Positions 7,779 to 28,065 of a stretch of 43,821 bases of DNA are shown one piece after another. The stretch is from a virus: UHGV virus genome UHGV-0374465. One strand, 5' to 3'. A program made the position numbers and the translations under genes. The notes beneath the pieces were generated by a model, which was not told the DNA's origin, did not search any database, and was given only the letters and a program-made list of their open reading frames with translations. Each line of letters opens with the position of its first letter. The stretch's first letter is position 1.

Positions 7779-7789
7779 ATTATAGCATA
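7779..7789 (-). promoter_or_regulatory. Conserved extended -10 element TATGCTATAAT (late promoter candidate) upstream of the major tail protein gene
   Basis: Minus strand reads gataatATGCTATAATtaacc. The same 11-mer occurs upstream of terL and the capsid gene. Confidence 0.4.
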
Positions 7790-7810
7790 TTATCAAGCCT
7801 TTGTGTTTGA

Positions 7811-8176
7811 TTACAAGACACGCTGTGACAACACATAGCGCTTAATAATTCTACGTCCTTCTTTCAAATCATGATCTTGTGTTTCTTCTGTATATGCACA
7901 TTGAATGCCTTGATCTCGCATAACTTTATCAAGTAAAAAGTAATACTTGTTTGATTCTTGTACATCACGCACCCACACATCTACCTGAACGCTTGTTGTT
8001 AGATAATTAGGTTGCTCTGAGGCATAATCTACATAATCACCAGATAGCTCTACAATACGTCCTAAAGGATAAGGTGGATTCACTTGCTGTTCTTCTTCAA
8101 TTTGATTGACAAACCAGTTTATTTCTGGAATAGCTTCTTCTAGTGCCTCAGCAATCATTAGCATTGGTAATTTCAT
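7811..8176 (-). CDS. Tail terminator / tail completion protein candidate
   Basis: 121 aa. Position between the gp10-like protein and the MTP. Confidence 0.45.
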   Translation of the reverse strand: MKLPMLMIAEALEEAIPEINWFVNQIEEEQQVNPPYPLGRIVELSGDYVDYASEQPNYLTTSVQVDVWVRDVQESNKYYFLLDKVMRDQGIQCAYTEETQDHDLKEGRRIIKRYVLSQRVL

Positions 8177-8547
8177 TATTTCATCCTCCTCATCATTTCA
8201 CTTTGAATAATATCAGCCACTTTGCTCTCTATATCTTTCAATGTTTTTTGTATAAAACCTTGTGGGGGTTGTTTAATCGTACCAAATTCAACAAAATGTA
8301 CTCTCCAAGAAACTTCCTTGTCAAACCCAACTTCTGAAATTGGTTTTTTTGCTGTAGGTTTGCTGTGAACCACGTGGTCTTTCATATGTGTTTTTGTATC
8401 ATAATCAATTGGTGTCCTTGTCTTCAACTGTTTTGACGCGTATTCTCCAGCTGCTTCTACAGACTTAATCATTGATTTTTCAAGTTCTTTTTCCGTTTTA
8501 CCTAGAGCTTTATAGACTGAGCTAAAATCCACATAATTCTTTTTCAT
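8176..8547 (-). CDS. HK97 gp10-family head-tail joining protein
   Basis: RVHFVEFGTIKQPP motif. RBS-supported start at 8547 (MKKNYVDF). Confidence 0.7.
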   Translation of the reverse strand: MKKNYVDFSSVYKALGKTEKELEKSMIKSVEAAGEYASKQLKTRTPIDYDTKTHMKDHVVHSKPTAKKPISEVGFDKEVSWRVHFVEFGTIKQPPQGFIQKTLKDIESKVADIIQSEMMRRMK

Positions 8548-8549
8548 AG

Positions 8550-8885
8550 TTAATCCTCCACTTGTTTGCACACTACTGTAGTGAAGTCTCTATCAAATGA
8601 ACCTTCCAGAATGTCTTCGATTCTATATTGCTTACCTTTGAACTCAATACGATTAGACTTTGAAACCAGTTGTCCTGTATCGTATCTAATAATAAAGTTT
8701 GTTGTATTAGCTAGCGTTGTTCCATAAGTATCTTGATAATCTTTAAAATACTGCTGTTTGACGGAACACCATATTTTTCTATCTGGGTTCCATGTTTCAA
8801 TCCACTCAAAGAACTCGTTTCGTGAGCGTGTCTTCACTAGCAGTGTAATCCGCTGATTCAACTTTGATGTCTTGATATTCGCCAT
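8550..8885 (-). CDS. Head closure / head-tail adaptor protein
   Basis: 111 aa. Sits between the gp6-like and gp10-like proteins. The stop overlaps the next start. Confidence 0.55.
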   Translation of the reverse strand: MANIKTSKLNQRITLLVKTRSRNEFFEWIETWNPDRKIWCSVKQQYFKDYQDTYGTTLANTTNFIIRYDTGQLVSKSNRIEFKGKQYRIEDILEGSFDRDFTTVVCKQVED

Positions 8886-9165
8886 GATTTAACCCCCTCA
8901 ATTGATGGATCATTGCTGTGATAGTAAATGGTACTTGTTGTTGTAGTGCATTTGTAGCTGGTACACGATTTTCATACCATAATGATACAAGCATGAATAT
9001 TAGAGTGTTTGTTTTTTGGTCATCTGGTAATACTGTCACTTCAATACTACCTAAAATATAGAGTTGTGCTGCCCCAAGTAACATTTCTAAGTAGGTATCA
9101 TCCTCATCATAGTCAATACGTAAATTGTTTTTAATTTGTTCTACTGTAATCATTGACTTTATCAC
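8806..9165 (-). CDS. gp6-like head-tail connector protein
   Basis: 119 aa, immediately after the capsid gene. N-terminus MITVEQIKNNLRIDYDEDD is typical of the gp6 connector family. Confidence 0.6.
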   Translation of the reverse strand: MIKSMITVEQIKNNLRIDYDEDDTYLEMLLGAAQLYILGSIEVTVLPDDQKTNTLIFMLVSLWYENRVPATNALQQQVPFTITAMIHQLRGLNHGEYQDIKVESADYTASEDTLTKRVL

Positions 9166-9230
9166 TTCCTTCTACTATAATAAAAGAGAGATGAGGCATG
9201 AGCCCCACCCCTCTTAGTGATTGTTGTATC

Positions 9231-10454: not shown

Positions 10455-10487
10455 TCAATCTCACTCCTTCACTAGCTTTCTGTTTTA

Positions 10488-10498
10488 ATTATAGCATA
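10488..10498 (-). promoter_or_regulatory. Conserved extended -10 element TATGCTATAAT upstream of the capsid gene
   Basis: Minus strand reads atatcTATGCTATAATtaaaac, about 35 nt before the capsid TTG start. Confidence 0.4.
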
Positions 10499-10523
10499 GA
10501 TATAAGAAGTTGTGGGCTTTAAA

Positions 10524-12225: not shown

Positions 12226-12235
12226 TTATTATGAC

Positions 12236-12408
12236 CTCCCTTCTCCTGAATTAGTGGCTTCATGATATAAAACAATGGTTGGTATCATGAATAGTATACC
12301 ACAGGTGAACAATCCTATGATATTTGATACTAAAAACGCTGATAAAGCGATAAATACTGCGCTAATTATATACAAAACAGCTACAATAACCGCAACAAAT
12401 TTCATGTT
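12236..12408 (-). CDS. Small membrane protein (57 aa, below the ORF-track cutoff)
   Basis: AAAGGAG RBS + ATG. Hydrophobic MKFVAVIVAVLYIISAVFIALSAFLV... Lies between the terL terminator and the portal gene. Confidence 0.4.
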
Positions 12409-12458
12409 TTCACGCTCCTTTTGCGATATTTCTAACTCTATTTTAACACAAAATATAA

Positions 12459-12486
12459 GAAAAAAGTATGCTGTTTAGGCATACTC
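12459..12486 (-). terminator. Rho-independent terminator after terL
   Basis: agtatgc-tgtttag-gcatact hairpin followed by TTTTTT on the minus strand. Confidence 0.6.
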
Positions 12487-12498
12487 TCATGTGGTGTA

Positions 12499-14274: not shown

Positions 14275-14306
14275 TTATGTATCCTCCTTTTATGCTAGTC
14301 ACTTAT

Positions 14307-14317
14307 ATTATAGCATA
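14307..14317 (-). promoter_or_regulatory. Conserved extended -10 element TATGCTATAAT directly upstream of terL
   Basis: Minus strand reads tttttTATGCTATAATataag, 35 nt before the terL ATG and just after a terminator. Confidence 0.4.
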
Positions 14318-14350
14318 AAAAAATACCCACTAGTTAGCTAGACTAGTGGG
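14317..14350 (-). terminator. Rho-independent terminator (hairpin CCCACTAGT-tagctag-ACTAGTGGG + T-run) at the end of the inter-terS/terL element
   Basis: 9 bp GC-rich stem followed by TATTTTTTT on the minus strand. Confidence 0.65.
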
Positions 14351-14670
14351 TTCATCTACACACCACTAAAGAGTGGGTGAAGCGAGTATCTGCAGGTTTC
14401 CACGCCCTCTGTTATGTGGCTAACTGCTTTGTCGTGCTTGTCGTCAAAGAGGGTCATACTATCACGCATTCGCTAGACACTGTAGCGAGCAGTCGTTTAG
14501 GTGCGCCGTCCACTAGTTAGCTAGACTAGTGGACGGTTAGTATCTGCGAATATACACGCCCTACGTTTAGTGCATATCCACTTTAGTGTGCATGTCGTCA
14601 AGTAGGGCATACTATCACACTATCCGCCAGATACTGTGGCGAGCGGTCGTTTACGTGTGCCGTCCACGAC
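14351..14670 (-). repeat. Two duplicated ~150 bp structured units separated by a 12 bp-stem palindromic hairpin. Candidate ncRNA or packaging-site element.
   Basis: Unit A (14351-14505) and unit B (14537-14670) align with conserved blocks (agtatctgc, catactatcac, gtcgttta, gccgtccac). Two helices covary between copies. No coding capacity. Confidence 0.5.
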
Positions 14671-14789
14671 TGTTCAGTTTCCAACAGCAACCCTTTTTAC
14701 CGTGGAGTGTGGTGAACCACCATTCATTGCCACGTATGGTGCACATAATATCCTTGAATATCAGTGGGTGTCACGTGTACTAGTAAATA

Positions 14790-14818
14790 TATTATAACAC
14801 AAAATCCGACTTCTGTGT
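14790..14818 (-). promoter_or_regulatory. Candidate extended -10 promoter (TGTTATAAT) that could drive transcription of the structured element
   Basis: Minus strand reads aacacagaagtcggattttgTGtTATAAT. The -35 is weak. Confidence 0.3.
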
Positions 14819-14890
14819 TATTTAGTGTATCTAATGTTTACCCCTTATTTGCTATATACATTATACCACATCTATTTAGTTTTGTGTATT

Positions 14891-15355: not shown

Positions 15356-15361
15356 TTATTT

Positions 15362-15652: not shown

Positions 15653-15654
15653 GT

Positions 15655-15894: not shown

Positions 15895-15905
15895 ATTATA
15901 TCATA
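15895..15905 (-). promoter_or_regulatory. Extended -10 element TATGATATAAT (variant of the late motif)
   Basis: Minus strand reads tttaTATGATATAATaaagc, upstream of the 60aa-96aa-terS cluster. Confidence 0.35.
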
Positions 15906-16084
15906 TAAAAAGAACCCTGTGTAAAGAAACCAGGGTTCAATCGTGTTTACTAAGGGAACAATCGTATAAGAGAAATAACATACTATATATAGTGTGATTC
16001 CTTTATTTTCAACACAAGAAACCAGGTTTTAATCACGTTTACGAGGGGAAAATGGCATTTTTCAAAGTTCATTTTTAGAATTTC

Positions 16085-16186
16085 GTGCGAAGAAGAGGGG
16101 GCAGCGATTAATTCGTTATAAAAAGGTAGGCGGGTAAAAACATTTTGGGTCTCCCTAAAAATGTTTTTGTCTGCGCGCTTGTTGAT
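16085..16186. other. GC-rich non-coding segment downstream of HNH. Candidate cos/packaging site.
   Basis: gaagaagagggggcagcg...ggtaggcggg...gtctgcgcgcttg, unusually GC-rich for this genome. Adjacent ~35 bp direct repeats at 15923-15957 and 16015-16050. Confidence 0.25.
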
Positions 16187-16579
16187 TTAGCGCTGTTCCC
16201 TACCTCTATTTTTCCAACTGTAGTTATGTTCTTCCTTGTTATGACACTCGTAACAGATTGACTCTAAGTTATTTAAATCAAGTCTATGTTTCCATCCGTT
16301 TGGACTTCTTAATTCTATCTTATGGTGAACCATGTTAGCGTTGGTGTACTTGCCTTGTGCTAAGCATACCTCGCAGAGTGGTTGCTCCATTAGCTTGGCT
16401 TTACGTGCGTTCCTCCATTGGGTTGAATGATAGAAGTTACTGTACTTCTTGTTGTCTTCGTTGTATCTCACGTGCTTATTGTATTGGCTATTGTTGTACC
16501 CTTGATGTGCGTCACAGTAGCGCTCAGGTAGCGTGACATAGTTGCGACATGAAGCCACTGCACACTTACGTTGTGGCAT
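16187..16579 (-). CDS. HNH endonuclease (packaging-associated)
   Basis: C-x4-C ... HHKIELRSPNGW ... CYECHNKEEH. RBS-supported start at 16579 (MPQRKCAVASC). Classic HNH-TerS-TerL arrangement. Confidence 0.85.
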   Translation of the reverse strand: MPQRKCAVASCRNYVTLPERYCDAHQGYNNSQYNKHVRYNEDNKKYSNFYHSTQWRNARKAKLMEQPLCEVCLAQGKYTNANMVHHKIELRSPNGWKHRLDLNNLESICYECHNKEEHNYSWKNRGREQR

Positions 16580-16622
16580 TGTGTTACTCCTTTCTACTAT
16601 TGTATAGAAGAAAAGACTACTA

Positions 16623-16781
16623 TTATTTAGTAGTCTTTTTTGCTTTAACAACAATCTTGTCTGTTGGTTGTTCTACTTTGACTGAGTCAGGTAGCTTTGC
16701 TGGCTGATGTTTGGCACAGTATTGTGCTGGTAGCTTAACTGTTTCGTTACACCCTTCGTGATTGCAGTACATATATGGCAA
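16623..16781 (-). CDS. Small Cys-rich protein (52 aa) resembling the N-terminal zinc-ribbon motif of the HNH protein
   Basis: GGGAGGTG RBS + TTG. YCNHEGCNETVKLPAQYCAKHQ versus HNH CAVASCRNYVTLPERYCDAHQ. Confidence 0.35.
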   Translation of the reverse strand: MPYMYCNHEGCNETVKLPAQYCAKHQPAKLPDSVKVEQPTDKIVVKAKKTTK

Positions 16782-17346: not shown

Positions 17347-17357
17347 ATTATATCATA
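17347..17357 (-). promoter_or_regulatory. Extended -10 promoter TATGATATAAT for the leftward (late) unit
   Basis: Minus strand reads cttatcTATGATATAATagaaac, ~25 nt upstream of the first minus-strand gene. Confidence 0.4.
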
Positions 17358-17389
17358 GATAAGGGATACTGTGTTGGTTAGGTAAACCA

Positions 17390-17741: not shown

Positions 17742-17770
17742 TTGACAGTCACGTCAATACATGATAAACT
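17742..17770 (+). promoter_or_regulatory. Early promoter E0 (TTGACA-17-TAAACT)
   Basis: Canonical sigma-A spacing, 30 nt upstream of the first early gene. Confidence 0.6.
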
Positions 17771-17800
17771 TAGATCATACAACAAAAGGAGGACTAAACA

Positions 17801-18088
17801 TTGGAAGTAACATTTACTGGCACACCACACGAAATCATGCAACAATATGATCACTGGCTAAAAACACTTGACCTTGAACAAACGCTACTATATAATAGAA
17901 TCATAATCACAGGTAATAAAACAGACAAAGTACCATTACCAGAGTATAAAAAAGTAATTCAACAAATTGCAATTAATAATGGAGGAGGAATAAAAAATAT
18001 TGACAATGAAATCATGAGTTGCTACAATGTAGAAAAGAAAAGATTTAGCAATGGTTTTTATATCACAGGAATCAAAATAAAACAATAA
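17801..18088 (+). CDS. Hypothetical early protein
   Basis: 95 aa, AAGGAGG RBS, TTG start. Confidence 0.55.
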   Translation: MEVTFTGTPHEIMQQYDHWLKTLDLEQTLLYNRIIITGNKTDKVPLPEYKKVIQQIAINNGGGIKNIDNEIMSCYNVEKKRFSNGFYITGIKIKQ

Positions 18089-18094
18089 AACCAG

Positions 18095-18123
18095 TTGACA
18101 AGGGTTTCTAAGCATGCTATACT
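18095..18123 (+). promoter_or_regulatory. Early promoter E1 (TTGACA-17-TATACT) with conserved leader cttagttcataagataagaggagg
   Basis: Canonical hexamers. The leader is identical to E2. Confidence 0.65.
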
Positions 18124-18154
18124 TAGTTCATAAGATAAGAGGAGGAATAAAACA

Positions 18155-18439
18155 ATGACAAACACAGTATCAGTTTTAATCAAATCAAGCAAGAAAGAAA
18201 CTCAATATAGATACGGTAAAGAACTTATCAATATTGATCGCAGAACATTACAGCAAATTAAGGGTACAACAAGTCAAGTTTTCGTAGCCAGCGAACCTCA
18301 ACGATTGCTTAAAGACGTTAGTGAGTTCAGAGACGGTCTAACATATTCTCATACAGAAAGTATTAAAATAAACCCTCAATTTATTTGGTACGTTGATGAC
18401 ATGCCAAATATGAGAAATTATGGCAATCTTTTCAAATAA
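18155..18439 (+). CDS. Hypothetical early protein
   Basis: 94 aa, GAGGAGG RBS. Confidence 0.55.
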   Translation: MTNTVSVLIKSSKKETQYRYGKELINIDRRTLQQIKGTTSQVFVASEPQRLLKDVSEFRDGLTYSHTESIKINPQFIWYVDDMPNMRNYGNLFK

Positions 18440-18443
18440 AAAG

Positions 18444-18472
18444 TTGACACAGATCAACAAGCATGCTATACT
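18444..18472 (+). promoter_or_regulatory. Early promoter E2 (TTGACA-17-TATACT). Its 35 nt leader is identical to E1.
   Basis: agcatgctatacttagttcataagataagaggagg repeated verbatim. Confidence 0.65.
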
Positions 18473-18503
18473 TAGTTCATAAGATAAGAGGAGGAAAACA
18501 ACA

Positions 18504-18743
18504 ATGAAAACAATGACACACGAAAAATACAACGAATTACAAAAGAAAATGGACATGCTTTACAACGATTTTATTGACTTAGCAGCAGACGCTGAAGAAA
18601 GTAACGAAGGTTTTAGTAAAGTTTCAGACTGGCTAGACAACGAGATAGAAGCCATTTTAGAATGGGCTGACACAAATGATAGCACAGTTTTAGCTGAATT
18701 AGCCATTGACTACTCAAAACTGAAAGGAATGTTAGCATGTTAG
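18504..18743 (+). CDS. Hypothetical acidic protein
   Basis: 79 aa, GAGGAGG RBS. Confidence 0.5.
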   Translation: MKTMTHEKYNELQKKMDMLYNDFIDLAADAEESNEGFSKVSDWLDNEIEAILEWADTNDSTVLAELAIDYSKLKGMLAC

Positions 18744-19063
18744 CAAAATATTACACTGATATCATGAAAATACAACTTAGAGAGTTCAAGCGACTCTCTA
18801 AGTCTCATGAGAAAGCATTGGAACAATTAATGAGAATGAACGAACCAGATAATATGCAAAATCACACAACGCAACGTTACTGGCAGACACTTAACAAAAT
18901 AGAACAATCTGAAAAAGAAATGCGCAACATAATTGAAGAGCTAAACGAATTAGAAAATCGCTTTCACTGGTTAGATAACTTACATCAAGAACGCTTTCAT
19001 TTTCTCACTAAAGACGCAGAGTTATTACAGAAAATTATCAAGTTGATGAATCTTCAAAGATAG
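18737..19063 (+). CDS. Hypothetical protein
   Basis: 108 aa, overlaps the upstream gene. Confidence 0.5.
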   Translation: MLAKYYTDIMKIQLREFKRLSKSHEKALEQLMRMNEPDNMQNHTTQRYWQTLNKIEQSEKEMRNIIEELNELENRFHWLDNLHQERFHFLTKDAELLQKIIKLMNLQR

Positions 19064-19075
19064 GAGGAAACTATA

Positions 19076-19258
19076 ATGTTAACCAAACCACAAAAAATAT
19101 TATTGTCATTTCTGCACGCACTAACAACTCTTGGAGTAATATTCTTAGCATATAAACTAGGCGTGTACCTATATAGTATCTTTGGCATAATCTCACTTCT
19201 TTACTTAGCTGGCTTCATTATTCTATGGCTTGTTTGGTATCTAATATTCAATAGCTAA
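19076..19258 (+). CDS. Small membrane protein
   Basis: 60 aa, two TM helices, TAGGAGG RBS. Confidence 0.5.
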   Translation: MLTKPQKILLSFLHALTTLGVIFLAYKLGVYLYSIFGIISLLYLAGFIILWLVWYLIFNS

Positions 19259-19268
19259 ATTAGGAGGA

Positions 19269-19472
19269 ATGGAAATGAACAAAGAAGACAAAATATTAAA
19301 GACACTTACTGAATTGTTAATATTCTTTCTAGTATGTTTAGATGTAGGTGCTGTTGTACTAATTATTGACATACTACAATACTCATTAACACTAATGATT
19401 TTAATAGCAGCGCTAGTGATATCATTAAATGTATCACTAATCTCAATGGTAGTTGAAATTAGGAGGAACTAA
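19269..19472 (+). CDS. Small membrane protein
   Basis: 67 aa, hydrophobic, TAGGAGG RBS. Confidence 0.5.
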   Translation: MEMNKEDKILKTLTELLIFFLVCLDVGAVVLIIDILQYSLTLMILIAALVISLNVSLISMVVEIRRN

Positions 19473-19473
19473 A

Positions 19474-19635
19474 ATGAACACATTTATTATTCTAGCAAAA
19501 AGAAACACTCAAACCATTCAATTAAGCTACCTAGCTGAAACGATGAGAGCAGCAATTGATGAATTTCGCTTGACATATCCCAAAAAGCACTATAAAATTA
19601 TTGACTGTAAGGAAGCAACAAATTATAATAGATAG
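19474..19635 (+). CDS. Hypothetical protein (start moved to the RBS-supported ATG)
   Basis: AGGAGG + 7 nt + ATG at 19474 (MNTFIILAK). Confidence 0.45.
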   Translation: MNTFIILAKRNTQTIQLSYLAETMRAAIDEFRLTYPKKHYKIIDCKEATNYNR

Positions 19636-19646
19636 GAGGCAGTACA

Positions 19647-19859
19647 ATGTATATTGTAGAAATTATTAATCCAGAAAAAGCAGAACTATATTATAGTCCA
19701 GAAGTTTTCAGCACTCTAAAAGAAGCAGAAGAATATTTGCAGGAAGCATGTGAAGATACACTTGGTTTAGAAGGTGTAATTGTATCAGTATTACTAGAAA
19801 AGGCTGTTTTCAATAAAAGAATGATTCTTGTGTCAGCAGATATTGTGTATCACACATAG
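19647..19859 (+). CDS. Hypothetical acidic protein
   Basis: 70 aa, TAGGAGG RBS. Confidence 0.5.
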   Translation: MYIVEIINPEKAELYYSPEVFSTLKEAEEYLQEACEDTLGLEGVIVSVLLEKAVFNKRMILVSADIVYHT

Positions 19860-19926
19860 ATAGTAACAATCACACTAACAAATAGTAAGATTAGTAGTGT
19901 GATCATAACAGAGGAGGAAAACAACA

Positions 19927-20268
19927 ATGTTACAATTTAAAGAATGTCAAACATATATTTGCACAAAGTCAAATAAATCCTGGTTTACTCCAGGAGAAGA
20001 ATATCCTGTTGTTTTGGATAGTCGTGGGACAGCACTAATTATAGACAATGATGCAGATAAATGGTCTTCACGCGCATTAGCTGCTTCTAACATTGACTTT
20101 AAACTAAAAGAGACGCAACCAAAAGTAAGGATGAAAGACCTAAAATCAAACAAAGTAGAACCCATGTATACACCATGTGACGTTAATAAAATAATTATCA
20201 AAGCTTATCAAACATATAATAATGACGCACAACGATTGGCATTTATAAAAGGATATTTTGCGAAATAA
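19927..20268 (+). CDS. Hypothetical protein. Paralog of the next gene.
   Basis: Shared motif C-x-KSN-x3-F-x2-GE-x-YP ... KW with 20287..20598. Confidence 0.5.
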   Translation: MLQFKECQTYICTKSNKSWFTPGEEYPVVLDSRGTALIIDNDADKWSSRALAASNIDFKLKETQPKVRMKDLKSNKVEPMYTPCDVNKIIIKAYQTYNNDAQRLAFIKGYFAK

Positions 20269-20286
20269 AAAGGAGGAAAAAAAGAA

Positions 20287-20598
20287 ATGACAATATTAAA
20301 ACGGTACAAATGTATAAAATCAAATGATGAACAAAGATTTGCTGTGGGAGAAATATATCCATTATATAATAACGGTTATAAAAATTACGTTGTAGCGAAT
20401 AATAATGTGAAATGGTATGAAAAAGAATTTCCAATTATTAAACGAGACTATGGTATTGAATTTGAGGAGGTAAAAGAAAAAATATTTGATCTAAACAAAC
20501 TGACAACCACACAGTTGAGAGAATACGTTGATCTACTTGAAAATAAAGAGAAAGCAGAACGCGCACTAAATAAGTTCATTGAAAGGATGACTAAATAA
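20287..20598 (+). CDS. Hypothetical protein. Paralog of the previous gene.
   Basis: KRYKCIKSNDEQRFAVGEIYPL... versus FKECQTYICTKSNKSWFTPGEEYPV... Confidence 0.5.
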   Translation: MTILKRYKCIKSNDEQRFAVGEIYPLYNNGYKNYVVANNNVKWYEKEFPIIKRDYGIEFEEVKEKIFDLNKLTTTQLREYVDLLENKEKAERALNKFIERMTK

Positions 20599-20777
20599 TG
20601 TTTAAAGTATTAGTGACAAAATACAATGCTGGAGAAGGTATAGAAGTAACTGAATTTAATTACATTGATAAGTATTACTTTGAAGATGACTATGTAATTT
20701 TATATGATACTACCAATAAAGTGAAAACCTATATTCAAAAAGACCAAGTATTAGAATTTGAGGTGCATTATGAATAA
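20598..20777 (+). CDS. Hypothetical protein (59 aa)
   Basis: TAATG overlap with the upstream gene. Open frame MFKVLVTKYNAGEG... Confidence 0.35.
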   Translation: MFKVLVTKYNAGEGIEVTEFNYIDKYYFEDDYVILYDTTNKVKTYIQKDQVLEFEVHYE

Positions 20778-20952
20778 AACTAACGAACTAATCACATTAA
20801 CAAGAATTGATGAAACCAAACTATATATAAACATTAATCATATTGTGGCATTCTATCACAACAAAGCTTGGGAATATACTATTGTTATACTGTCAGACGG
20901 TACTCAATTAGATATAAAAGACTCAGTAGAATCAATTGCTAACTATTTTTAA
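20770..20952 (+). CDS. Hypothetical protein
   Basis: GAGGTG RBS. ATG at 20770 preferred over the track's TTG at 20758. Confidence 0.45.
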   Translation: MNKTNELITLTRIDETKLYININHIVAFYHNKAWEYTIVILSDGTQLDIKDSVESIANYF

Positions 20953-20958
20953 TCAAAA

Positions 20959-20990
20959 GTATAGCACAAATGAAAAGTTTGTGCTATACT
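20959..20990 (+). promoter_or_regulatory. Hairpin (10 bp stem) followed by an extended -10 element TGCTATACT and the conserved leader. Terminator/promoter composite E3.
   Basis: gtatagcacaaa-tgaaaag-tttgtgctatact. The stem overlaps the -10. Confidence 0.45.
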
Positions 20991-21023
20991 TAGTACATAT
21001 CAGATGAGGGAGGACAAAAAAGA

Positions 21024-22610
21024 ATGAATGAACTAACAAAAATAGATTATTCAGCACCACTTGAGGAATTACTACCAGTTTCAAATAAAAACTTTCCAAG
21101 TGAGGAGTTTGTGGACTTCAATTCAGAATTAGGAAGGATGTATTACGGAGGTAAAGACGGTACACAAGCCAAATTTGAGATTCAACAGGAATTATTTATT
21201 GATAAATTCAACCAGCTAGCCTATGTGTACGCTCACCCTAACTTAAACGCTCCATATGTATACAACGCAGACACGCGCATCTGGTCTGAGGTAAATCTAG
21301 GTAGTTACAAATATTCAGATTGGTACTTTGAAAATATTCTAGCGCCAAAATTTACACCACAATTCAGAAATCCAGAGTTTGGGAATGAAATTCGTAAAGA
21401 AATGAAGAAACTAGCTCCTGAGTTAGCGAATCGCTCCATGACACGTGGCGAACATGCACCATTAGGTGATAACCCCAACCCAAACATTATTGCGTTTGAA
21501 AACGGCACATACGACTTTAGAACGAATGAAATTCGTGAGACAAGATTAGAAGATTATCATACGTTACAATTGCCATATCCGTTAATTAAAACAGATGAGA
21601 CAGATGAATTACTCGCAAAACAATGGATTGATTATTTACTTAAAGACCAAGCTCAGACATTGTATGAGTATATTGGTTACATGTATTATAGAGAGTACAA
21701 ATATCAATCAATTCTATATTTATTAGGTAATGGATCAAATGGTAAATCATATGTAGGTGGATTTATCATGAACAAATTAATTGGTTTCAAAAATAGCTCA
21801 GCAGTTGGTCTAGACAGCTTAGCAGATAAGAATAATCGTTTTGATAAAGCTTCACTACACCACAAATTATTGAACTTTGAAGCGGATTCAAGTGCCAATT
21901 TTGTGAAGGGTACGGAGACATTGAAAAAGCTTTCAGGAGGTCTTGACGCTGTTCATGCTGAGAAAAAAGGCAAAGACGCTTTTAGCTTCACCAACTATGC
22001 AAAACTAATGTTCTCAATGAATGAACTACCTGCATTTAATGATCGTACAAATGGTTGGTATAGACGTATTTTGATTTTAAATTTCAACACTAATCTTGAC
22101 ACACCAGAGGCACGTCAACGCATTAATGAGTTCAATAAACAACGTGAAGAACGTGAGTCAAAAGAGCAACTTGGTAAATTTGCCTGGTTCTGTATTCAAC
22201 AATTCAAAAAGATTTTAGACACAGGTGCAAATGGTGAAAACCCATTCACAGAAACAGAAGACATGATTGAATTTAAGAAAGCATATATTGAATCCAACGA
22301 CCCATCTAAAGAGTTCTTGAGTGAAGTACCTGTGATTGTGGAAGATGAGGAAGGCAGTGTTAACCTAACCCTATTGAAGAATATCTTTAATGTGTACACA
22401 AAAGAAAACAATATCAATAAGTCAATGAACTGGCGAACGATGAAAGAATTACTACTGAAGCAAGGATTTGAAGAAAAACGTACAAGTAAAGCTCGTATAT
22501 TAACTGGTCTCAAAATTGCACGTAATGGAGACAACGAGTCAATTAAACCATATTTAATGAACGCGTTAGCAGGAACAGAGTATGTAAACATTTTCAATGA
22601 TATACAATAG
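21024..22610 (+). CDS. DNA primase/helicase (P4/D5-type, C-terminal SF3 NTPase)
   Basis: 528 aa. Walker A LLGNGSNGKS. Overall resembles the phage/plasmid primase P4 C-terminal domain and D5-like proteins. Confidence 0.7.
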   Translation: MNELTKIDYSAPLEELLPVSNKNFPSEEFVDFNSELGRMYYGGKDGTQAKFEIQQELFIDKFNQLAYVYAHPNLNAPYVYNADTRIWSEVNLGSYKYSDWYFENILAPKFTPQFRNPEFGNEIRKEMKKLAPELANRSMTRGEHAPLGDNPNPNIIAFENGTYDFRTNEIRETRLEDYHTLQLPYPLIKTDETDELLAKQWIDYLLKDQAQTLYEYIGYMYYREYKYQSILYLLGNGSNGKSYVGGFIMNKLIGFKNSSAVGLDSLADKNNRFDKASLHHKLLNFEADSSANFVKGTETLKKLSGGLDAVHAEKKGKDAFSFTNYAKLMFSMNELPAFNDRTNGWYRRILILNFNTNLDTPEARQRINEFNKQREERESKEQLGKFAWFCIQQFKKILDTGANGENPFTETEDMIEFKKAYIESNDPSKEFLSEVPVIVEDEEGSVNLTLLKNIFNVYTKENNINKSMNWRTMKELLLKQGFEEKRTSKARILTGLKIARNGDNESIKPYLMNALAGTEYVNIFNDIQ

Positions 22611-22621
22611 GAGGAATAATA

Positions 22622-22825
22622 ATGAGTTTAAAATCAGAGATTTTTGATTATATTGATATGCGTTTGGAGTATGTTAATAGAAAAATAGATAGATTTGAAC
22701 AATTTGATAATACGAGATCTAAAAGCTCACTTATAGAACAGGCTATGAATATAGCCATTAAGGATGAGTTGTTAATACTCAAAAACGACTTATACTATAC
22801 AATGCCATGGGAGGAAGAGGAATGA
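22622..22825 (+). CDS. Hypothetical protein
   Basis: 67 aa, TAGGAGG RBS. Confidence 0.45.
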   Translation: MSLKSEIFDYIDMRLEYVNRKIDRFEQFDNTRSKSSLIEQAMNIAIKDELLILKNDLYYTMPWEEEE

Positions 22826-23046
22826 ACAAATATTATGTATACACAGTAAATAGTGATACACCATTTGTGGTCAGAACAAAAGATGATCTACAAGAAGAAT
22901 ATTGGAATACTGTTGTAAAAACAAAAGGTCAAGGTGTATGGCGTTTTGAGTATGAGGGTGAAGAAAAACCAGGCAGAACACCAACCAAGTATGATAGTGT
23001 GTTCAGAGTAGAGCACATTGTATCTATTGTAAAAATAATTGAATAA
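22822..23046 (+). CDS. Hypothetical protein
   Basis: RBS-supported ATG at 22822 (MNKYYVYTV). Confidence 0.45.
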   Translation: MNKYYVYTVNSDTPFVVRTKDDLQEEYWNTVVKTKGQGVWRFEYEGEEKPGRTPTKYDSVFRVEHIVSIVKIIE

Positions 23047-23061
23047 TTTTAAACTTTACCC

Positions 23062-23090
23062 TTGACTTATTGTTGAGGGTATTGTATTAT
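23062..23090 (+). promoter_or_regulatory. Early promoter E8 (TTGACT-17-TATTAT)
   Basis: Canonical spacing upstream of 23117. Confidence 0.5.
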
Positions 23091-23116
23091 ATAAATATAG
23101 AGAGGGAGGAATTGAA

Positions 23117-23311
23117 ATGACATATCAAGAATTAATTGAACACAAGAACACATTGCAGGGTAAAATAAATGAGATAAATAAAACAATAGAGTATTTTAAA
23201 AGCATTGGAGTAAACAACTTTATAGACACATTAGATGATACTCGTGAACGTTTAACTCAGTTAGTAGACATTATTGACACAGAACTATATAAAAAGGAGG
23301 AATTAAAATGA
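23117..23311 (+). CDS. Hypothetical protein
   Basis: 64 aa, GGGAGG RBS. Confidence 0.45.
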   Translation: MTYQELIEHKNTLQGKINEINKTIEYFKSIGVNNFIDTLDDTRERLTQLVDIIDTELYKKEELK

Positions 23312-23400
23312 CATTTATGATGATTGGGTTATTATTTATTGGAGCAGTAATTTACGGAGCTGGAGTACTTATCCACTGGTTAGAGGAGGGAGAATATTAA
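23308..23400 (+). CDS. Hydrophobic micro-protein (30 aa, single TM)
   Basis: AAGGAGG RBS + ATGA overlap. MTFMMIGLLFIGAVIYGAGVLIHWLEEGEY. Confidence 0.3.
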   Translation: MTFMMIGLLFIGAVIYGAGVLIHWLEEGEY

Positions 23401-23401
23401 G

Positions 23402-23617
23402 ATGGATAAATTGAATTACACAAAAGACCTAACAACAGAAACTGACGAGCAAGTGTGTGTTGGAACGTATGATAATGATATTAATATTTACATTAGGTTA
23501 ATAGATGATGAAGAAGATTGTGCCATTGTGACACTAACACTTAAAGAGGCACAACGTGTGAAGCGCTACTTAGAAGACGCTATCACAACGAATATTATTA
23601 ATTGGGAGGAAGAATAA
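23402..23617 (+). CDS. Hypothetical acidic protein
   Basis: 71 aa. Confidence 0.45.
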   Translation: MDKLNYTKDLTTETDEQVCVGTYDNDINIYIRLIDDEEDCAIVTLTLKEAQRVKRYLEDAITTNIINWEEE

Positions 23618-23850
23618 TGTTAACATTAAAAGAATGGGATGATATTGCGTCAGAATTAGAACCGCAAGTAATGTCAAATTACGGCGAGAAGGAGCAAACA
23701 TATCTATGGGCACTATATGGTGGGCTATTGCAACACATGAAAGATTCAGGCATGACAATTGATGAAGTATTATTAATTTGTGAAGAGAAAGCAACAGGTA
23801 AAAAGAGAGAGGATTGCGTGAGAAGTCATGAAAGAAAATCAGTTCAGTAA
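23617..23850 (+). CDS. Hypothetical protein
   Basis: TAATG coupling. GGGAGG RBS. Start at 23617 (MLTLKEW). Confidence 0.45.
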   Translation: MLTLKEWDDIASELEPQVMSNYGEKEQTYLWALYGGLLQHMKDSGMTIDEVLLICEEKATGKKREDCVRSHERKSVQ

Positions 23851-24178
23851 ACAAGTTGTCAAACATTTGAAAGACAAAGGTGCATTAGTGAACGTTAATA
23901 CTGCAAACATGTTTGATAAAGTGGGTAGAAGTGATGTAGAATGTTGTTACAAAGGTTATTGGATTAGTTTAGAATTGAAAGTGGGTAGCTACCAGCCAGA
24001 TCCGTTACAAATTAGTTACTTACAAAAGGTAAGAGAAGCTGGAGGATTTGGATTAATTTTGCGTGACAATATTCATGAGCTCATGGTTTTATTGCATTGT
24101 ATTGATAATTGTGTTGAAAGACAATATAAACAACCAGACTTGCCAGAAATTAAAGTGGAGGAGATTGAGTATGATTGA
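23828..24178 (+). CDS. VRR-NUC domain nuclease (PD-(D/E)xK)
   Basis: GRSDVECCYKGYWISLELKVGSYQPDPLQISYLQKVREAGGFGLILRD fits the VRR-NUC D...E.K...Q core. Typical partner of phage SNF2 helicases. Confidence 0.6.
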   Translation: MKENQFSKQVVKHLKDKGALVNVNTANMFDKVGRSDVECCYKGYWISLELKVGSYQPDPLQISYLQKVREAGGFGLILRDNIHELMVLLHCIDNCVERQYKQPDLPEIKVEEIEYD

Positions 24179-24356
24179 ACTACGAGACTTTTTAAATTGT
24201 GTAGATATTGATGAGGTTGTTATTGAAATAAATAGAAATGGTTTTTACGGAAAAGAACTTTATCAATATTATTATTTAAGTGAGATTAATACAATGAAAA
24301 TCTCAGAACTTTATGTGAACCCAAATAATATGATAACGGCGGTGATTCAATTTTGA
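24171..24356 (+). CDS. Hypothetical protein (61 aa)
   Basis: GGAGGAG RBS + ATG at 24171. Preferred over the track's 24063 start. Confidence 0.4.
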   Translation: MIELRDFLNCVDIDEVVIEINRNGFYGKELYQYYYLSEINTMKISELYVNPNNMITAVIQF

Positions 24357-24744
24357 TTAAAAACTATTTAATTACGTATGAAAAGAAGACATATGATGGA
24401 CGGTATCTTGAGACAACTACTCACCAAATACGAATCCCAGCACTAACACTTTTTGACGCTGTAGACTACGCACACAATACGCTAGAACTAGAAGGAATCA
24501 AGGAGGTGCGGTTAGTATGAGTTGGATCATGAAAGCTAAAATATTAAATATACAACAGGCGTCAGTATACGCAGCAAATGAAGAGTATATGAAGTTAGTA
24601 AATATATGTTATAAATGGGAGGTGATTAAATATGATTAAGCTATTCTACTACTATATAAGGTTGAAAATGAAATACCATTATAATATTACGCAAAATATG
24701 GAGATGTGGGATAAATTATTTGAGTTGAAAAAGGAGTTAGCTAA

Positions 24745-26028
24745 ATGGTTATGAATCTATTTGATTATCAAAAAGAGGCTATTGAAAATTTTGAGACTAA
24801 GCCGCTCAATTTATCAGATGTTGGAACTGGGAAGTCATATATGAGTATTGGATCATATATAAAAAGTGGGTGTAATAAATTACTAGTAATTTGCCTAGCT
24901 CCTAAAGTGTTAGATTTTATGGAAGATGGAAAAGCATTTGGTTTAGACATTACACCTCTTAATAAAGGCACTAAAAAGAATAGAGAACTATTATCAGAAT
25001 CAAATCATGTAGCAATCAGTTTTGAGAGTAGTTGGCGCTTGACTGAGTTGTTAAAATGGGTAGACAAAGACACGTTTATTATCATTGATGAGTCCCACAA
25101 AGTAGGTGTATCTAAATCAAAAGTTACAAAGTTTGTCATGCAACTAAGTAAGAAAGCCAAACACACGTATTTATGCACAGCAACACCTGTCAGCAATGGT
25201 AAACTTGAGAACTGGTACTCACAATTATATATAGCAAACGTCTTTAGAAAGCCTAAGAAAGAGTTTGAACAGCTATTTGTGATTAAACAAATGAGACAAA
25301 TGGGATCAATGCGTTTCATGGATGTGGTTGGCTATCAAAATGAACAGCTACTTCAACAAATGATAGACAATGCTAGTGTAAACTATAAACGTGATAAAGG
25401 CTATCTTCCGCAAGATTATGTTTATAAAACTAAGAAGCCTACGTATTATAATAAGTTGAAAAAGAATAGAATTTACAAAGATGACTTTGATCACATTGTT
25501 GAATTAGATAACGCTAGTAATCTATTTAACAGACTCAGACAAGTCAGCCATGGTTTTCTAGAAGGGGTACTAAAACCAGTATCCAAAGAACCTTTTGAAC
25601 GTTTAGATGCAATTCTTGAAACGCATAATAATGAACGTGTGGTGATATTCTATAATTACAAAGCAGAGTATTTAATGCTAAGAATGTTACTAGACAAACT
25701 AAAAAGACCATACGGTGTGTATAACGGAAGTATGAAGGAATTAGATAACTTCAAACGAAATGAAAATGGAGTAGTATTAGCACAATACAAGTCAGCCTCA
25801 ACAGGTATAAATGACTTTGTGATTAGTAATGTGATGATCTTCAATAGTTTACCTTTAAGTTCAACAGAATACTTACAGGCAAAAGGTAGAATAGATAGAC
25901 ATAAGCAAACTAAAACTCCATTATATTATACAATCGTTCCAGATACACCAATTGAGAAAAAGATCTTTGAGACAATTAAAAATGGTAAAGACTTCACAAC
26001 TGAGATGATTGAGGAGAGTGTGAAATAA
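24745..26028 (+). CDS. SNF2/DEAD-like superfamily 2 helicase
   Basis: Walker A DVGTGKS, motif II DESH, motif VI QAKGRIDRHKQ. Confidence 0.8.
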   Translation: MVMNLFDYQKEAIENFETKPLNLSDVGTGKSYMSIGSYIKSGCNKLLVICLAPKVLDFMEDGKAFGLDITPLNKGTKKNRELLSESNHVAISFESSWRLTELLKWVDKDTFIIIDESHKVGVSKSKVTKFVMQLSKKAKHTYLCTATPVSNGKLENWYSQLYIANVFRKPKKEFEQLFVIKQMRQMGSMRFMDVVGYQNEQLLQQMIDNASVNYKRDKGYLPQDYVYKTKKPTYYNKLKKNRIYKDDFDHIVELDNASNLFNRLRQVSHGFLEGVLKPVSKEPFERLDAILETHNNERVVIFYNYKAEYLMLRMLLDKLKRPYGVYNGSMKELDNFKRNENGVVLAQYKSASTGINDFVISNVMIFNSLPLSSTEYLQAKGRIDRHKQTKTPLYYTIVPDTPIEKKIFETIKNGKDFTTEMIEESVK

Positions 26029-26048
26029 AAATAAATGTGCCAAACTAG

Positions 26049-26077
26049 TTGACACCCCTTAAATGGGGTGTTATACT
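26049..26077 (+). promoter_or_regulatory. Early promoter E4 (TTGACA-17-TATACT) with a 7 bp hairpin ACACCCC-ttaaat-GGGGTGT in the spacer
   Basis: Canonical hexamers. The hairpin sits 20 nt after the helicase stop, so it may double as a terminator. Confidence 0.6.
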
Positions 26078-26105
26078 TAGTACATAGATAAAAGGAGGAA
26101 GTAAG

Positions 26106-26849
26106 ATGAAACAACTAAGACTAAAGAAAAATGGTAAAGCACCACTAGTTGCTGGAGCGTTTGATGGAGAATCAGAAGATTTGATTCAAAAATGGATTAA
26201 AGAGGGAGGTAATATCGGAATTCTTACTGGAACAAAAAGTGGAATCATAGTGGTTGACTTAGACCGTCATGGTGATTCAGATGGGGTTGACTCATTAAAG
26301 AATCTACTTGAAGCATATGATATTGAGTTACCAATAACTAAAGTAGTTAAGACACCCAATAACGGATATCATTATTATTTTAAGTTGCCTTCAAAATATT
26401 ATGATATTCAACTGAAACAGAATGTAAATGGTTATGAAGGTATTGATTTTCAGAGTAGCGGTCGTTTCGTTGTAGTACCACCCAGTCAAATTGATGGTAG
26501 ACCATATGAGGTAATTCGTGACGTTGCTGAGTTACCAGAGTTACCAGAGAAGTTACTTGAGATTTTAGTGGATAAAACGATTACTAAGAAAAACAAGAAG
26601 CGAGAAAGAAAATGGACGGCAACCCTATTAGGTGATATAATTGCAGGTAGTGGTGAAGGCGGAAGAAATATCTGGCTAACCACTCAAATTGGTAAATTAT
26701 TTGCTACAGGACTGAACCATGATGAGGTGCGTGTATGGTCTCTATACGTTAATCAGATTGGCTGCAATCCACCATTATCAGAGGATGAAGTACTGCAAAC
26801 ATATGAGAGCGTTCGTAAGCGCGAAATAAGAAGAATGGAGAATAACTGA
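26106..26849 (+). CDS. Bifunctional primase-polymerase (PrimPol N-terminal domain + PriCT-like C-terminus)
   Basis: VVDLDRH (DxD), GYHYYF, VVVPPS motifs. Confidence 0.7.
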   Translation: MKQLRLKKNGKAPLVAGAFDGESEDLIQKWIKEGGNIGILTGTKSGIIVVDLDRHGDSDGVDSLKNLLEAYDIELPITKVVKTPNNGYHYYFKLPSKYYDIQLKQNVNGYEGIDFQSSGRFVVVPPSQIDGRPYEVIRDVAELPELPEKLLEILVDKTITKKNKKRERKWTATLLGDIIAGSGEGGRNIWLTTQIGKLFATGLNHDEVRVWSLYVNQIGCNPPLSEDEVLQTYESVRKREIRRMENN

Positions 26850-27589
26850 TGTATAAATTATATAATGGTGAAGCACTAGAAATTATGGATAAATTAATTA
26901 GTGAAGGTGTTAAAGTTGACTGTATTATCACAGACCCACCTTATGGTAGTTTAAATAAGAAAATTTTCAAATGGGATAACATTATTCCTTTTGATGAAAT
27001 GTGGGATAGAATTGATAAGTTAAAAAGAAACGACAGCACACCAGTATTATTGTTTGGCAAGCAACCTTTTTCTAGCTTTTTAAACATGAGCAATATTAAC
27101 GAATTTAGATTTGAGATTATTTGGGAAAAACAACAAGGTATAGATTTTATGAGCGCAAAAAGAAAGCCTCTTACAAACCATGAAAATATATCTGTGTTTT
27201 ATAAAAAACAAACCAATTATAACCCAATTATGGATAAAGGGACACCGTATGTTAGAAAAGGAGAATACTCATCAAGTGATATTAGTGGGGCAGGAAACTT
27301 AAAGGGTACTGCGCGTGATACCAATAATGAGGGATTTCGTTATCCAAAAACCGTACGTCTATATAGTTCGCCTAGTGGAAAACAAAGAGTACATCCTACT
27401 CAGAAGCCAATTGAGTTACTAGAATGGCTAGTGAAAAGTTATAGCAATGAAGGTGATACAATACTTGACTTCACAATGGGTAGTGGTTCAACAGGGGTTG
27501 CATGTAAAAACACAAATAGAAATTTCATTGGTATTGAATTAGATGAAACCTACTATAATATTGCTAAAGAAAGAATGGAGGACAAATAA
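26849..27589 (+). CDS. DNA methyltransferase (beta-class N6A/N4C; DPPY before FxGxG)
   Basis: IITDPPYGS ... ILDFTMGSGSTGVAC. No adjacent restriction endonuclease. Confidence 0.8.
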   Translation: MYKLYNGEALEIMDKLISEGVKVDCIITDPPYGSLNKKIFKWDNIIPFDEMWDRIDKLKRNDSTPVLLFGKQPFSSFLNMSNINEFRFEIIWEKQQGIDFMSAKRKPLTNHENISVFYKKQTNYNPIMDKGTPYVRKGEYSSSDISGAGNLKGTARDTNNEGFRYPKTVRLYSSPSGKQRVHPTQKPIELLEWLVKSYSNEGDTILDFTMGSGSTGVACKNTNRNFIGIELDETYYNIAKERMEDK

Positions 27590-27799
27590 ATGAATTATGA
27601 TGAATTAATCACTAAACTAGATCAACTGCTACCACCAAAGAATCAGAAGCTTAAGGTGTCTGACAAATATTTCTACTATTGTTATGGTTATTTAACCTCG
27701 TTGGATAGTTTTAATATTATTTCAAAAGAGGATTACGTAAACGCCCACAGGTACGTAACTATGAGTATGAATGATAATAAATATAAGGAGGAAGAATAA
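27590..27799 (+). CDS. Hypothetical protein
   Basis: 69 aa, coupled to the MTase stop. Confidence 0.45.
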   Translation: MNYDELITKLDQLLPPKNQKLKVSDKYFYYCYGYLTSLDSFNIISKEDYVNAHRYVTMSMNDNKYKEEE

Positions 27800-27999
27800 T
27801 GGATAAGCGATTATTTAACACAGAGTTTAAAAATGGATATTGTGTGACAGTATTCAGTCAATCAAGATTTGAGTTACAATACTATGTAGAAGTTTTCCAT
27901 GTTAATGAGCCGCAAGATAATCATAGAGTTGAGTTTCATACCGCGCGCGAGGTTTTTGGATATTTATCAGATATTCAAAATTATAAACAAAAAGACTAG
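27799..27999 (+). CDS. Hypothetical protein
   Basis: 66 aa, GGAGG RBS. Confidence 0.45.
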   Translation: MDKRLFNTEFKNGYCVTVFSQSRFELQYYVEVFHVNEPQDNHRVEFHTAREVFGYLSDIQNYKQKD

Positions 28000-28020
28000 T
28001 CAATTGACTAGTCTTAACGA
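27997..28020. repeat. Perfect 24 bp palindrome AAGACTAGTCAATTGACTAGTCTT
   Basis: Exact symmetry, overlaps a stop codon. The ACTAGT hexamer is also the core of the terS-terL hairpins. Confidence 0.6.
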
Positions 28021-28065
28021 GAGGAGGGAGGAGGAATCCCTATAATTAATTATAGCATAAAATAA

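Follow-up and report, generated by a model that had tools for sequence, protein, structure and literature searches.

A recurrent extended −10 element ahead of late genes, and two candidate RNAs, in an Enterococcus faecium siphophage genome

What does the 11-mer TATG(C/A)TATAAT do in UHGV virus genome UHGV-0374465, where it recurs ahead of late genes? In the DNA analysed here (the window, 43,821 nucleotides (nt) long), a preliminary description had listed six minus-strand copies, five upstream of key late genes and one within the early region, and had proposed internal late promoters, possibly dependent on a phage activator. The minus strand does carry six copies and the plus strand none; dinucleotide-preserving shuffles contain 0.19 on average and never more than 2. 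Five had been placed exactly (17347, 15895, 14307, 10488 and 7779); for the sixth, the position is 28049-28059, ten bases away from the 28039-28049 given for it. Late genes occupy two stretches of the minus strand, 17357 to 1 and 43821 to 37230, and the plus strand holds the early and replication genes between 17800 and 37152. The best overall explanation, argued below from the sequence, is that the 11-mer belongs to one conserved host-type promoter class, here called class L, which probably starts the blocks of late genes and is read by the host sigma-A as an extended −10 element.

The restriction to C or A at the central base is arbitrary, as the 11-mer is a subset of TRTGnTATAAT. This broader pattern occurs 12 times in the window against 0.83 expected, with 11 sites on the minus (late) strand, and adds sites before the Dit (1910), tape measure (6479) and tail chaperone (7109) genes, two sites followed by no open reading frame (ORF; 14791 and 14860), and one on the plus strand (31067). 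Perfect TATAAT and TRTG are present at 12/12 sites, eight as TATG and four as TGTG. Nine sites are sense-oriented, the end of the −10 hexamer being 26-57 nt 5' of a Shine-Dalgarno (SD) sequence and start codon. They serve the genes for Dit, tape measure, chaperone, major tail protein, capsid and terL, a 62-aa ORF, a 60-aa ORF and, on the early arm, ORF 31125, whose product resembles a single-stranded-DNA-binding protein (SSB); the genes named beforehand as lying downstream of the copies were correctly identified. The remaining three sites precede no ORF, but structured RNAs with terminators. The TRTGnTATAAT core is the Gram-positive sigma-A extended −10 element, a known kind of signal that here has a lineage-specific twist.

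The flanks are T/A-rich, as had been described, and are frequently the T-run of an upstream intrinsic terminator. Such terminators are predicted immediately upstream of the class-L sites at 14307, 7109, 6479 and 1910, and at 15895 the −35 box sits inside an upstream hairpin that is followed by a T-run. Because further predicted terminators close the capsid and major tail genes, these two form insulated, monocistronic promoter-gene-terminator cassettes (Table 1).

The sites had been said to have no good −35 element. This holds insofar as TTG is absent from that position at all of them (0/12 in the window), but a conserved, non-canonical CACA takes its place. Aligning all 12 sites by their motif reveals C (12/12), A (10/12), C (10/12) and A (10/12) exactly 12 nt upstream of TRTG, a second information peak in the position profile; these bases fall on positions 3-6 of a −35 hexamer at the canonical spacing of 17 bp. 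Among the sites with CACA the hexamer is AACACA, TACACA, CCCACA, TGCACA or TTCACA; those without CACA are 14307 (AACTAG) and 6479 (CGCTAG). CACA-N12-TRTGnTATAAT has ten copies in the window versus 0.01 expected; as a control, of 380 TATAAT words lacking the TG in the window and six related complete genomes (together, the seven genomes), just three have CACA at this offset. Sigma region 4.2 normally reads the G of the −35 TTG, and it is a C that stands there in class L. The full element in this lineage is (A/T)ACACA - 12 nt - TRTGnTATAAT. Two other origins of the box were considered and rejected. As a by-product of terminator hairpins it would be expected to overlap them, and only 3/10 boxes do; as for a palindromic operator formed with TRTG, 8/12 sites read TATG rather than TGTG, and the half-sites would be 1.5 helical turns apart.

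Conservation in relatives had been named beforehand as a test of the motif, and it is present upstream of the same genes in six related phages. Relatives of the E. faecium group have 10-13 TRTGnTATAAT sites each and phiSHEF5 has seven, in orthologous intergenic positions with diverged spacers and flanks. Among the 79 sites of the seven complete genomes, position 3 of the −35 hexamer is C in 69, CACA is present in 50 and TTG in four. This count of 50/79 replaces an earlier one of 69/99, which was dropped because the IMG/VR loci in it had been retrieved with a pattern containing CAACAC. In phiSHEF5, of the genus Efquatrovirus, CACA is found at only 2/7 sites, with the extended −10 element and the gene positions kept; therefore, the extended −10 is family-wide and the ACACA box lineage-specific.

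The early strand carries promoters of another type. TTGACA-N17-TAnnnT occurs 11 times in the window against 1.1 expected, always on the plus strand and ten times in the early arm. Their −10 hexamers are TATACT, TAAACT, TAAGAT, TACAAT or TAAAAT, and none of the perfect-TTGACA promoters has a perfect TATAAT; three more plus-strand candidates combine a 5/6 match to the −35 with TATAAT. The division is sharp: in the seven genomes, TTGACA-N17-TAnnnT is found 80 times on the early strand versus once on the late strand (TGn in 55/80, TRTG in 7/80), and class L 44 times on the late strand versus six times on the early strand, all six before the same gene. A cassette, CATAAGATAAGAGGAGG, is repeated within about 6 nt after early promoters (18129-18145, 18478-18494 and 35456-35472, among others, all on the plus strand), with five copies at no more than one mismatch versus 0.02 expected. 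Early genes favour SD sites of the AGGAGGAA type, often about 10 nt from the predicted 5' end and within CATAAGATAAGAGGAGG. The closeness of this cassette to the early promoters implies that many early mRNAs have predicted leaders of about 10 nt and a shared extended SD. Two early promoters, 26049-26077 and 35422-35450 (both plus strand), have hairpin-forming spacers, TTGACACCCCTTAAATGGGGTGTTATACT and TTGACACCTCTTAACTGAGGTGTTATACT, one arm of the stem being the −35 and the other the TG of the −10 region.

A search of about 53 phage proteins with Pfam and PHROGs profiles yielded no sigma factor and no helix-turn-helix, RinA/ArpU/Alt-type or MotA/AsiA-type protein; Sigma70_r2/r4 matched none of the proteins scanned, and the small ORFs upstream of terS contain no RinA/ArpU/LtrC/Alt domains. 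There is likewise no recognisable homologue of gp39 of Thermus phage P23-45, with more than 25 early proteins lacking any family assignment. ORF 31125-31817, on the plus strand, encodes a 230-aa protein of a family that is confined to these phages, has no Pfam domain and always lies behind a late-class promoter. The protein has an invariant C-terminal DLPF after an acidic linker, and its AlphaFold model (pLDDT 82.8) matches only tandem OB-fold proteins, with low TM-scores that make the matches suggestive only. By this model it is probably a tandem OB-fold SSB, apparently a novel phage one. It was also considered as a self-activating late regulator; the OB-fold matches and the SSB-like DLPF tail point to an SSB and not to a transcription factor.

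The sixth copy was proposed to lie within a palindrome and to generate an antisense transcript against early genes. No ORF follows it; UAUAGGGAUUCCUCCUCCCUCCUCUCGUUAAG starts some 7 nt past the −10, and beyond it come a hairpin of 10 bp (27992-28015) and U5. The predicted product is not a long antisense transcript, but a discrete terminated small RNA (sRNA) of about 55 nt, which lies in an intergenic spacer and shares with ORF 27799-27999 only the final ~13 nt of that ORF; an action on early genes may still hold, through an effect in trans on their translation. The palindrome, TATAATTAATTATA, does exist, at 28041-28054, but is probably incidental, because it is not conserved in relatives. Upstream, the AACACA of this promoter (28070-28075) lies directly against a plus-strand early promoter (28076-28104), whose TTGACA occupies 28076-28081.

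Retrieval of the sRNA locus from IMG/VR gave 34 loci with 18 distinct RNA variants, and promoter, hairpin and terminator are kept in these 18. All variants tested share one fold, with z scores from −3.2 to −6.8. Across lineages the 5' stem takes five forms (AGGGA/UCCCU, AGGGUA/UACCCU, AAGGUG/CACCUU, GGAAGU/ACUUCC and AGGGGG/CUCCCU), and the 7-9-nt loop contains the anti-SD UCCUCC or UUCCUC in every lineage. Compensatory changes affect 5/10 pairs of the terminator helix; the 5' hairpin was judged by per-sequence folds, since MAFFT could not register 7-nt and 8-nt loops for a formal pair count. No Rfam family matches the sRNA at the gathering threshold, the best being RF02278 with 19.3 bits against a threshold of 50. 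Perfect complements to the sRNA of at least 9 nt fall almost only on early-strand ribosome-binding sites (RBSs), 13/14 in the window with its own locus excluded. The longest sRNA match is greater for early than for late translation initiation regions in 7/7 genomes (Mann-Whitney p = 7e-5 to 2e-2), and a control with the 16S anti-SD shows no such early/late bias. RF02278, a toxic sRNA of Betaproteobacteria of the CU-rich anti-SD type, resembles it in being a short terminated RNA with CCUCC-type motifs in a loop and a single-stranded stretch, complementary to RBSs. The sRNA is, however, not a member of this family; it is phage-encoded, about 55 nt long and behind a late-class promoter, and its targets are predicted only. 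Firmicute sRNAs with C-rich loops, such as RsaE/RoxS, offer a further comparison of the anti-SD type.

The other two class-L sites without an ORF lie in tandem between terS and terL, where no minus-strand ORF of at least 40 aa, and none that is credible, is found (14275-14890). The candidate RNA that they precede consists of two tandem units of about 154 nt (about 14539-14667 and 14385-14513), and the hairpin CCACTAGTCTAGCTAACTAGTGG comes after each unit; the second such hairpin (14325-14351) plus T7 is a terminator directly before the terL promoter. Relatives have a single unit at the same place, duplicated in this phage; in one IMG/VR contig (L044) the unit is broken by an insertion. A consensus fold on 15 distinct unit copies has 28 pairs, with 98.3% of cells paired and eight compensatory (double-change) pairs versus 4.0 +/- 1.2 in shuffles, of which 1/500 reach eight; slid controls reach 29-45% pairing and 0-1 double changes. 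There are no Rfam matches to this RNA at E<=1. For the window as a whole there is no match at the gathering threshold, and no tRNAs were found. The two RNAs, previously undescribed and absent from Rfam, are the more novel by-products of the promoter class.

The exact sigma-A extended −10 core, the orientation, the placement and the conservation mark class L as a real signal and support its reading as a promoter class. The proposal of internal late promoters, on the leftward arm, is supported as the best reading: the elements are conserved before the same genes in relatives and stand in sense orientation at a short distance from SD and start codon. Class L would split the late arm into separate units, often compact modules of a terminator and then a promoter, and would also drive the two non-coding RNAs and, in the early region, an abundantly expressed SSB-like gene for replication; the early arm would instead use TTGACA - 17 - (TGn) promoters with an imperfect −10. 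Transcription would begin about 6-8 nt after each TATAAT, presumably with sigma-A. We favour reading by host sigma-A because the core is the sigma-A extended −10, no regulator is detectable and P23-45 provides an analogue. A phage activator may not be needed on this evidence; ACACA at the −35 position leaves room for a factor. The difference in timing would come from a dependence of the early class, and not of class L, on the contact of sigma region 4 with TTGACA, and an early phage protein that disabled this contact, like P23-45 gp39 or T4 AsiA, would switch RNA polymerase (RNAP) to class L. From the sixth copy, an sRNA would be made whose UUCCUCC loop pairs with the GGAGGAA-type SD sites typical of early genes, damping their translation.

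P23-45 is the best documented analogue. Its early promoters and those of its host belong to the −10/−35 class, and its middle and late promoters are extended −10 promoters without a −35, all used by host sigma-A (PMC3950348). Extended −10 promoters do not need the −35 in other systems, and the small P23-45 protein gp39 displaces sigma region 4, sparing only promoters of this kind (PMC3950348). It also antiterminates at intrinsic terminators (PMC3351154), an activity relevant to the terminator-promoter modules described above. The split into classes is matched here by the 80 early/1 late and 44 late/6 early counts. Differences are the Firmicute host, the ACACA box and the absence of a detected gp39 homologue, and in the present case the system is known from its sequence alone.

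Several points speak against the sigma-A reading. The literature searched contains no transcriptome of this phage group, so sigma usage, timing and start sites are predictions. Unmodified host RNAP should transcribe from a perfect extended −10 promoter as soon as the DNA is injected, and the sequence gives no reason for it to be late; a class-L promoter before the SSB-like replication gene is no less compatible with strong or abundant expression than with late expression, and simple independence of the −35 leaves the strict conservation of C-A-C-A unexplained. No gp39-, AsiA- or MotA-like protein was found, small RNAP binders usually being invisible to profile searches. As for the sRNA, its targeting appears generic. 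A match between each sRNA and the early RBS word of its own phage was looked for and dropped, the own-versus-foreign matrix being without specificity, and a search for a specific target by duplex energy gave −27.8 kcal/mol at best versus −23.4 +/- 2.8 for shuffled sRNA, only marginally better (4% of shuffles). Because of this lack of own-versus-foreign specificity and these marginal energies, a trans-acting anti-SD role against early mRNAs is put forward as a reasoned hypothesis.

Class L might also mark strength and not timing. Its members would then be very strong, constitutive sigma-A promoters for bulk products (capsid, tail tube, SSB and sRNAs), with terminator-promoter modules setting the stoichiometry, the early/late split reflecting bulk need, and no phage factor. 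A perfect host consensus core, a class-L promoter before the SSB-like gene on the early arm, the insulated capsid and major tail cassettes and the lack of a detectable regulator all suit this possibility, which we nevertheless doubt: it does not account for the same class preceding genes of low-copy products (terL, tape measure, Dit and small ORFs), for the avoidance in the seven genomes of TTGACA on the late strand (1/81) and of TTG in class L (4/79), or for the conservation of C-A-C-A. In a more specific form of the activator proposed in the preliminary description, an early phage protein would recognise ACACA at −35/−30 and recruit or remodel sigma-A RNAP, class L being inactive without it. 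In T4 middle promoters, a MotA box is combined with a sigma70 −10 and used by AsiA/MotA sigma appropriation; a host −10 is likewise kept, and a conserved box at a fixed distance replaces the −35. The fixed 12-nt distance of the box, its C (12/12 in the window, 69/79 across genomes) and the substitution of that C for the G read by region 4.2 agree with such an activator. We consider it unlikely even so, as the TRTGnTATAAT core is a full extended consensus that, unlike the −10 of T4 middle promoters, should not need activation and should make the promoter −35-independent; with CACA at only 2/7 phiSHEF5 sites, the family as a whole can do without the box, which is also missing from 6479 and 14307 in the window, and no candidate DNA-binding protein was identified. 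Furthermore, the MotA box is unrelated in sequence to (A/T)ACACA, and there is no MotA/AsiA homologue among the ~53 proteins. There is hardly any chance that the 11-mers are not promoters at all but signals for recombination, packaging or replication, or targets of homing endonucleases. These genomes do contain several HNH or homing endonuclease genes, and the repeats are at module boundaries, where mosaic exchange occurs, but the match to the sigma-A extended −10 consensus is exact, orientation strictly follows gene direction (the single plus-strand copy included), the distance to SD and start, or to a structured, separately terminated RNA, is fixed and short, and cos is elsewhere, at 16098-16106.

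For the sixth copy, an action in cis has to be weighed as well. Its RNA could pair with read-through early polycistronic mRNA, leading to RNase III cleavage between ORF 27799-27999 and ORF 28137, or RNAP at this site could occlude the abutting early promoter (promoter interference). In its favour, the sRNA can pair without a mismatch over 32+ nt with the early-sense spacer, and the −35 elements of the two promoters adjoin each other, back to back. The window also has in common with EhiS_268 and phiSHEF5 the sequence GTCAACAC, which spans both elements; that it is constant among the IMG/VR loci is no independent evidence, GTCAACAC having been part of the retrieval pattern. We rate this explanation as rather unlikely, because a purely cis role needs no hairpin with a covarying stem and an invariant UCCUCC loop, and because the sRNA complements many early RBSs significantly better than late ones, though cis and trans roles may coexist. 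A more elaborate scheme, which we regard as improbable, would join the parts into a two-layer early-to-late switch: an early protein would retarget sigma-A RNAP from TTGACA to ACACA-N12-TRTGnTATAAT promoters, one of which would then fire an anti-SD sRNA that globally silences early mRNAs through their shared GGAGGAA-type SD near the 5' ends, with the same class making the terS-terL RNA, possibly for a packaging-related role.

Other phages of Gram-positive hosts offer partial parallels to class L. In the transcriptome of Staphylococcus Kayvirus, TRTGn-TATANT is the experimentally derived sigma-A extension and −10 (PMC7698491). This core is the same; there, however, it is combined with a TTGACW −35 and marks early promoters, whereas class L has a conserved ACACA and no TTG, and marks the late arm. 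Kayvirus late promoters have a non-sigma-A −10, TGTTATATTA (PMC7698491). Late promoters of the Kayvirus/SPO1 type resemble class L in being a distinct late class without a canonical −35, but they come with a phage sigma gene and a non-sigma-A −10, while class L has TATAAT and no sigma gene was found. In the RinA/ArpU/LtrC/Alt systems, the activator gene lies next to terS. These proteins are late activators of Gram-positive temperate phages (PMC3753634), and a regulated late promoter lies upstream of terS (PMC3152322). Packaging, morphogenesis and lysis genes of Firmicute phages are under control in both cases, but here about a dozen promoters are dispersed and no such activator gene was detected near terS.

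IME-EFm1, IME-EFm5 and KEN group phages are in development against vancomycin-resistant E. faecium, and no transcription map exists for them. The analysis yields a testable whole-genome map of promoters and terminators, and its two sharply separated promoter classes could be used as parts in phage engineering. The ACACA box may point to a novel route by which sigma-A RNAP is redirected, and for one of the two conserved RNAs a part in shutting off the translation of early genes is plausible. If this function is true, the phage would offer a rare example, among virulent Gram-positive phages, of temporal control through a trans-acting anti-SD RNA.

Table 1. Positions of class-L elements, early-class promoters, candidate RNAs and the cos site in the window.
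Feature	Position	Strand	Sequence elements	Context
Class-L promoter	17347..17373	-	AACACA, 17-bp spacer, TATGATATAAT	First of leftward arm; then 62-aa ORF (start 17320); orthologous copies in all relatives
Class-L promoter	15895..15921	-	TACACA ... TATGATATAAT	First after cos; before 60-aa ORF (15837), 96-aa ORF and terS
Class-L promoter	14860..14886	-	TACACA ... TGTGGTATAAT	Directly after terS stop codon; no ORF downstream
Class-L promoter, second of tandem	14791..14817	-	AACACA ... TGTGTTATAAT	No ORF downstream
Class-L extended −10	14307..14317	-	TATGCTATAAT; −35 position AACTAG, only C kept	Immediately after terminator 14325-14351; before terL (14274)
Class-L promoter	10488..10514	-	CCCACA ... 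TATGCTATAAT	Before major capsid gene 10454-9231, which ends at terminator 9184-9215; orthologous in relatives
Class-L promoter	7779..7805	-	AACACA ... TATGCTATAAT	Before major tail gene 7738-7175, which ends at terminator 7144-7169; orthologous in relatives
Class-L promoter	7109..7135	-	TGCACA ... TATGTTATAAT	After terminator 7144-7169; before tail assembly chaperone genes (start 7072)
Class-L extended −10	6479..6489	-	TATGTTATAAT; −35 position CGCTAG	Directly after terminator 6494-6524; before tape measure (~6448)
Class-L promoter	1910..1936	-	TTCACA ... TGTGTTATAAT	−35 box is the loop of terminator 1922-1948; before Dit (1880)
Class-L promoter (sixth copy)	28049..28075	-	AACACA ... TATGCTATAAT	Back to back with TTGACA of plus-strand early promoter; conserved in 34 loci
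Class-L promoter, only one on early strand	31051..31077	+	TACACA ... TGTGCTATAAT	Before ORF 31125-31817; kept before same gene in six genomes
Weaker one-mismatch variant	12440..12451	-	TTGTGTTAAAAT	After terminator 12462-12488; before 58-aa ORF and portal gene
One-mismatch variant	38894..38904	-	GATGTTATAAT	Before holin/lysis cassette (start 38844)
Early-class promoters	17742, 18000, 18095, 18444, 19570, 26049, 28076, 29622, 32420, 35422 (span 17742..35450)	+	TTGACA-N17-TAnnnT	
Candidate structured non-coding RNA	14318..14853	-		Between terS and terL; two tandem class-L promoters (14860, 14791)
Candidate ~55-nt sRNA	27987..28043	-	5' hairpin AGGGA-UUCCUCC-UCCCU (28025-28041), single-stranded CCUCUCG, terminator hairpin 27992-28015 + U5	
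cos site	16098-16106		Match to IME-EFm1 termini	Between HNH endonuclease gene (16187-16654) and class-L promoter at 15895

The window is the complete, circularly permuted genome of a lytic, cos-type E. faecium siphophage of the IME-EFm1/IME-EFm5/SSBHU group. Its late region is 86-94% identical to lytic E. faecium siphophages (SSBHU, IME-EFm1, IME-EFm5 and KEN phages). The Dit/tail ORF (1-1880 joined to 42576-43821, minus strand) runs uninterrupted across the window junction and codes for 1041 aa. The terminal sequences of IME-EFm1 were determined experimentally (PMC4445525), and its terminal 20-mers are found verbatim, exactly flanking 9 nt at 16098-16106. From the continuous Dit ORF and these termini, it follows that the genome is complete, of the cos type and circularly permuted. 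The GTG start that the ORF list places at 43712 is not a real one; the genome was opened inside the Dit gene.

Several other features of the genome were observed. The word TTTGTCAY occurs 12 times in the window, and nine of these copies cluster at 17397-17725, in both orientations, within the divergent early/late control region and flanking an AT-rich stretch at about 17540-17570. Judged from its sequence, this layout is iteron- or operator-like and could be a replication origin or a set of binding sites for a regulator. SSBHU and EF36P3 show the same clustering (nine copies in 400 nt), which Bp29 and phiSHEF5 lack. Two DNA methyltransferase genes, one N6_N4_Mtase and one of the D12/Dam class, are located on the plus strand at 26849-27589 and 35486-36208, and several HNH endonuclease genes are dispersed over the genome. 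Just upstream of the primase gene at 21024, a perfect palindrome (20958-20990) contains two divergent extended −10-like elements, TGTGCTATACT, each with TAGCAC at the −35 position.

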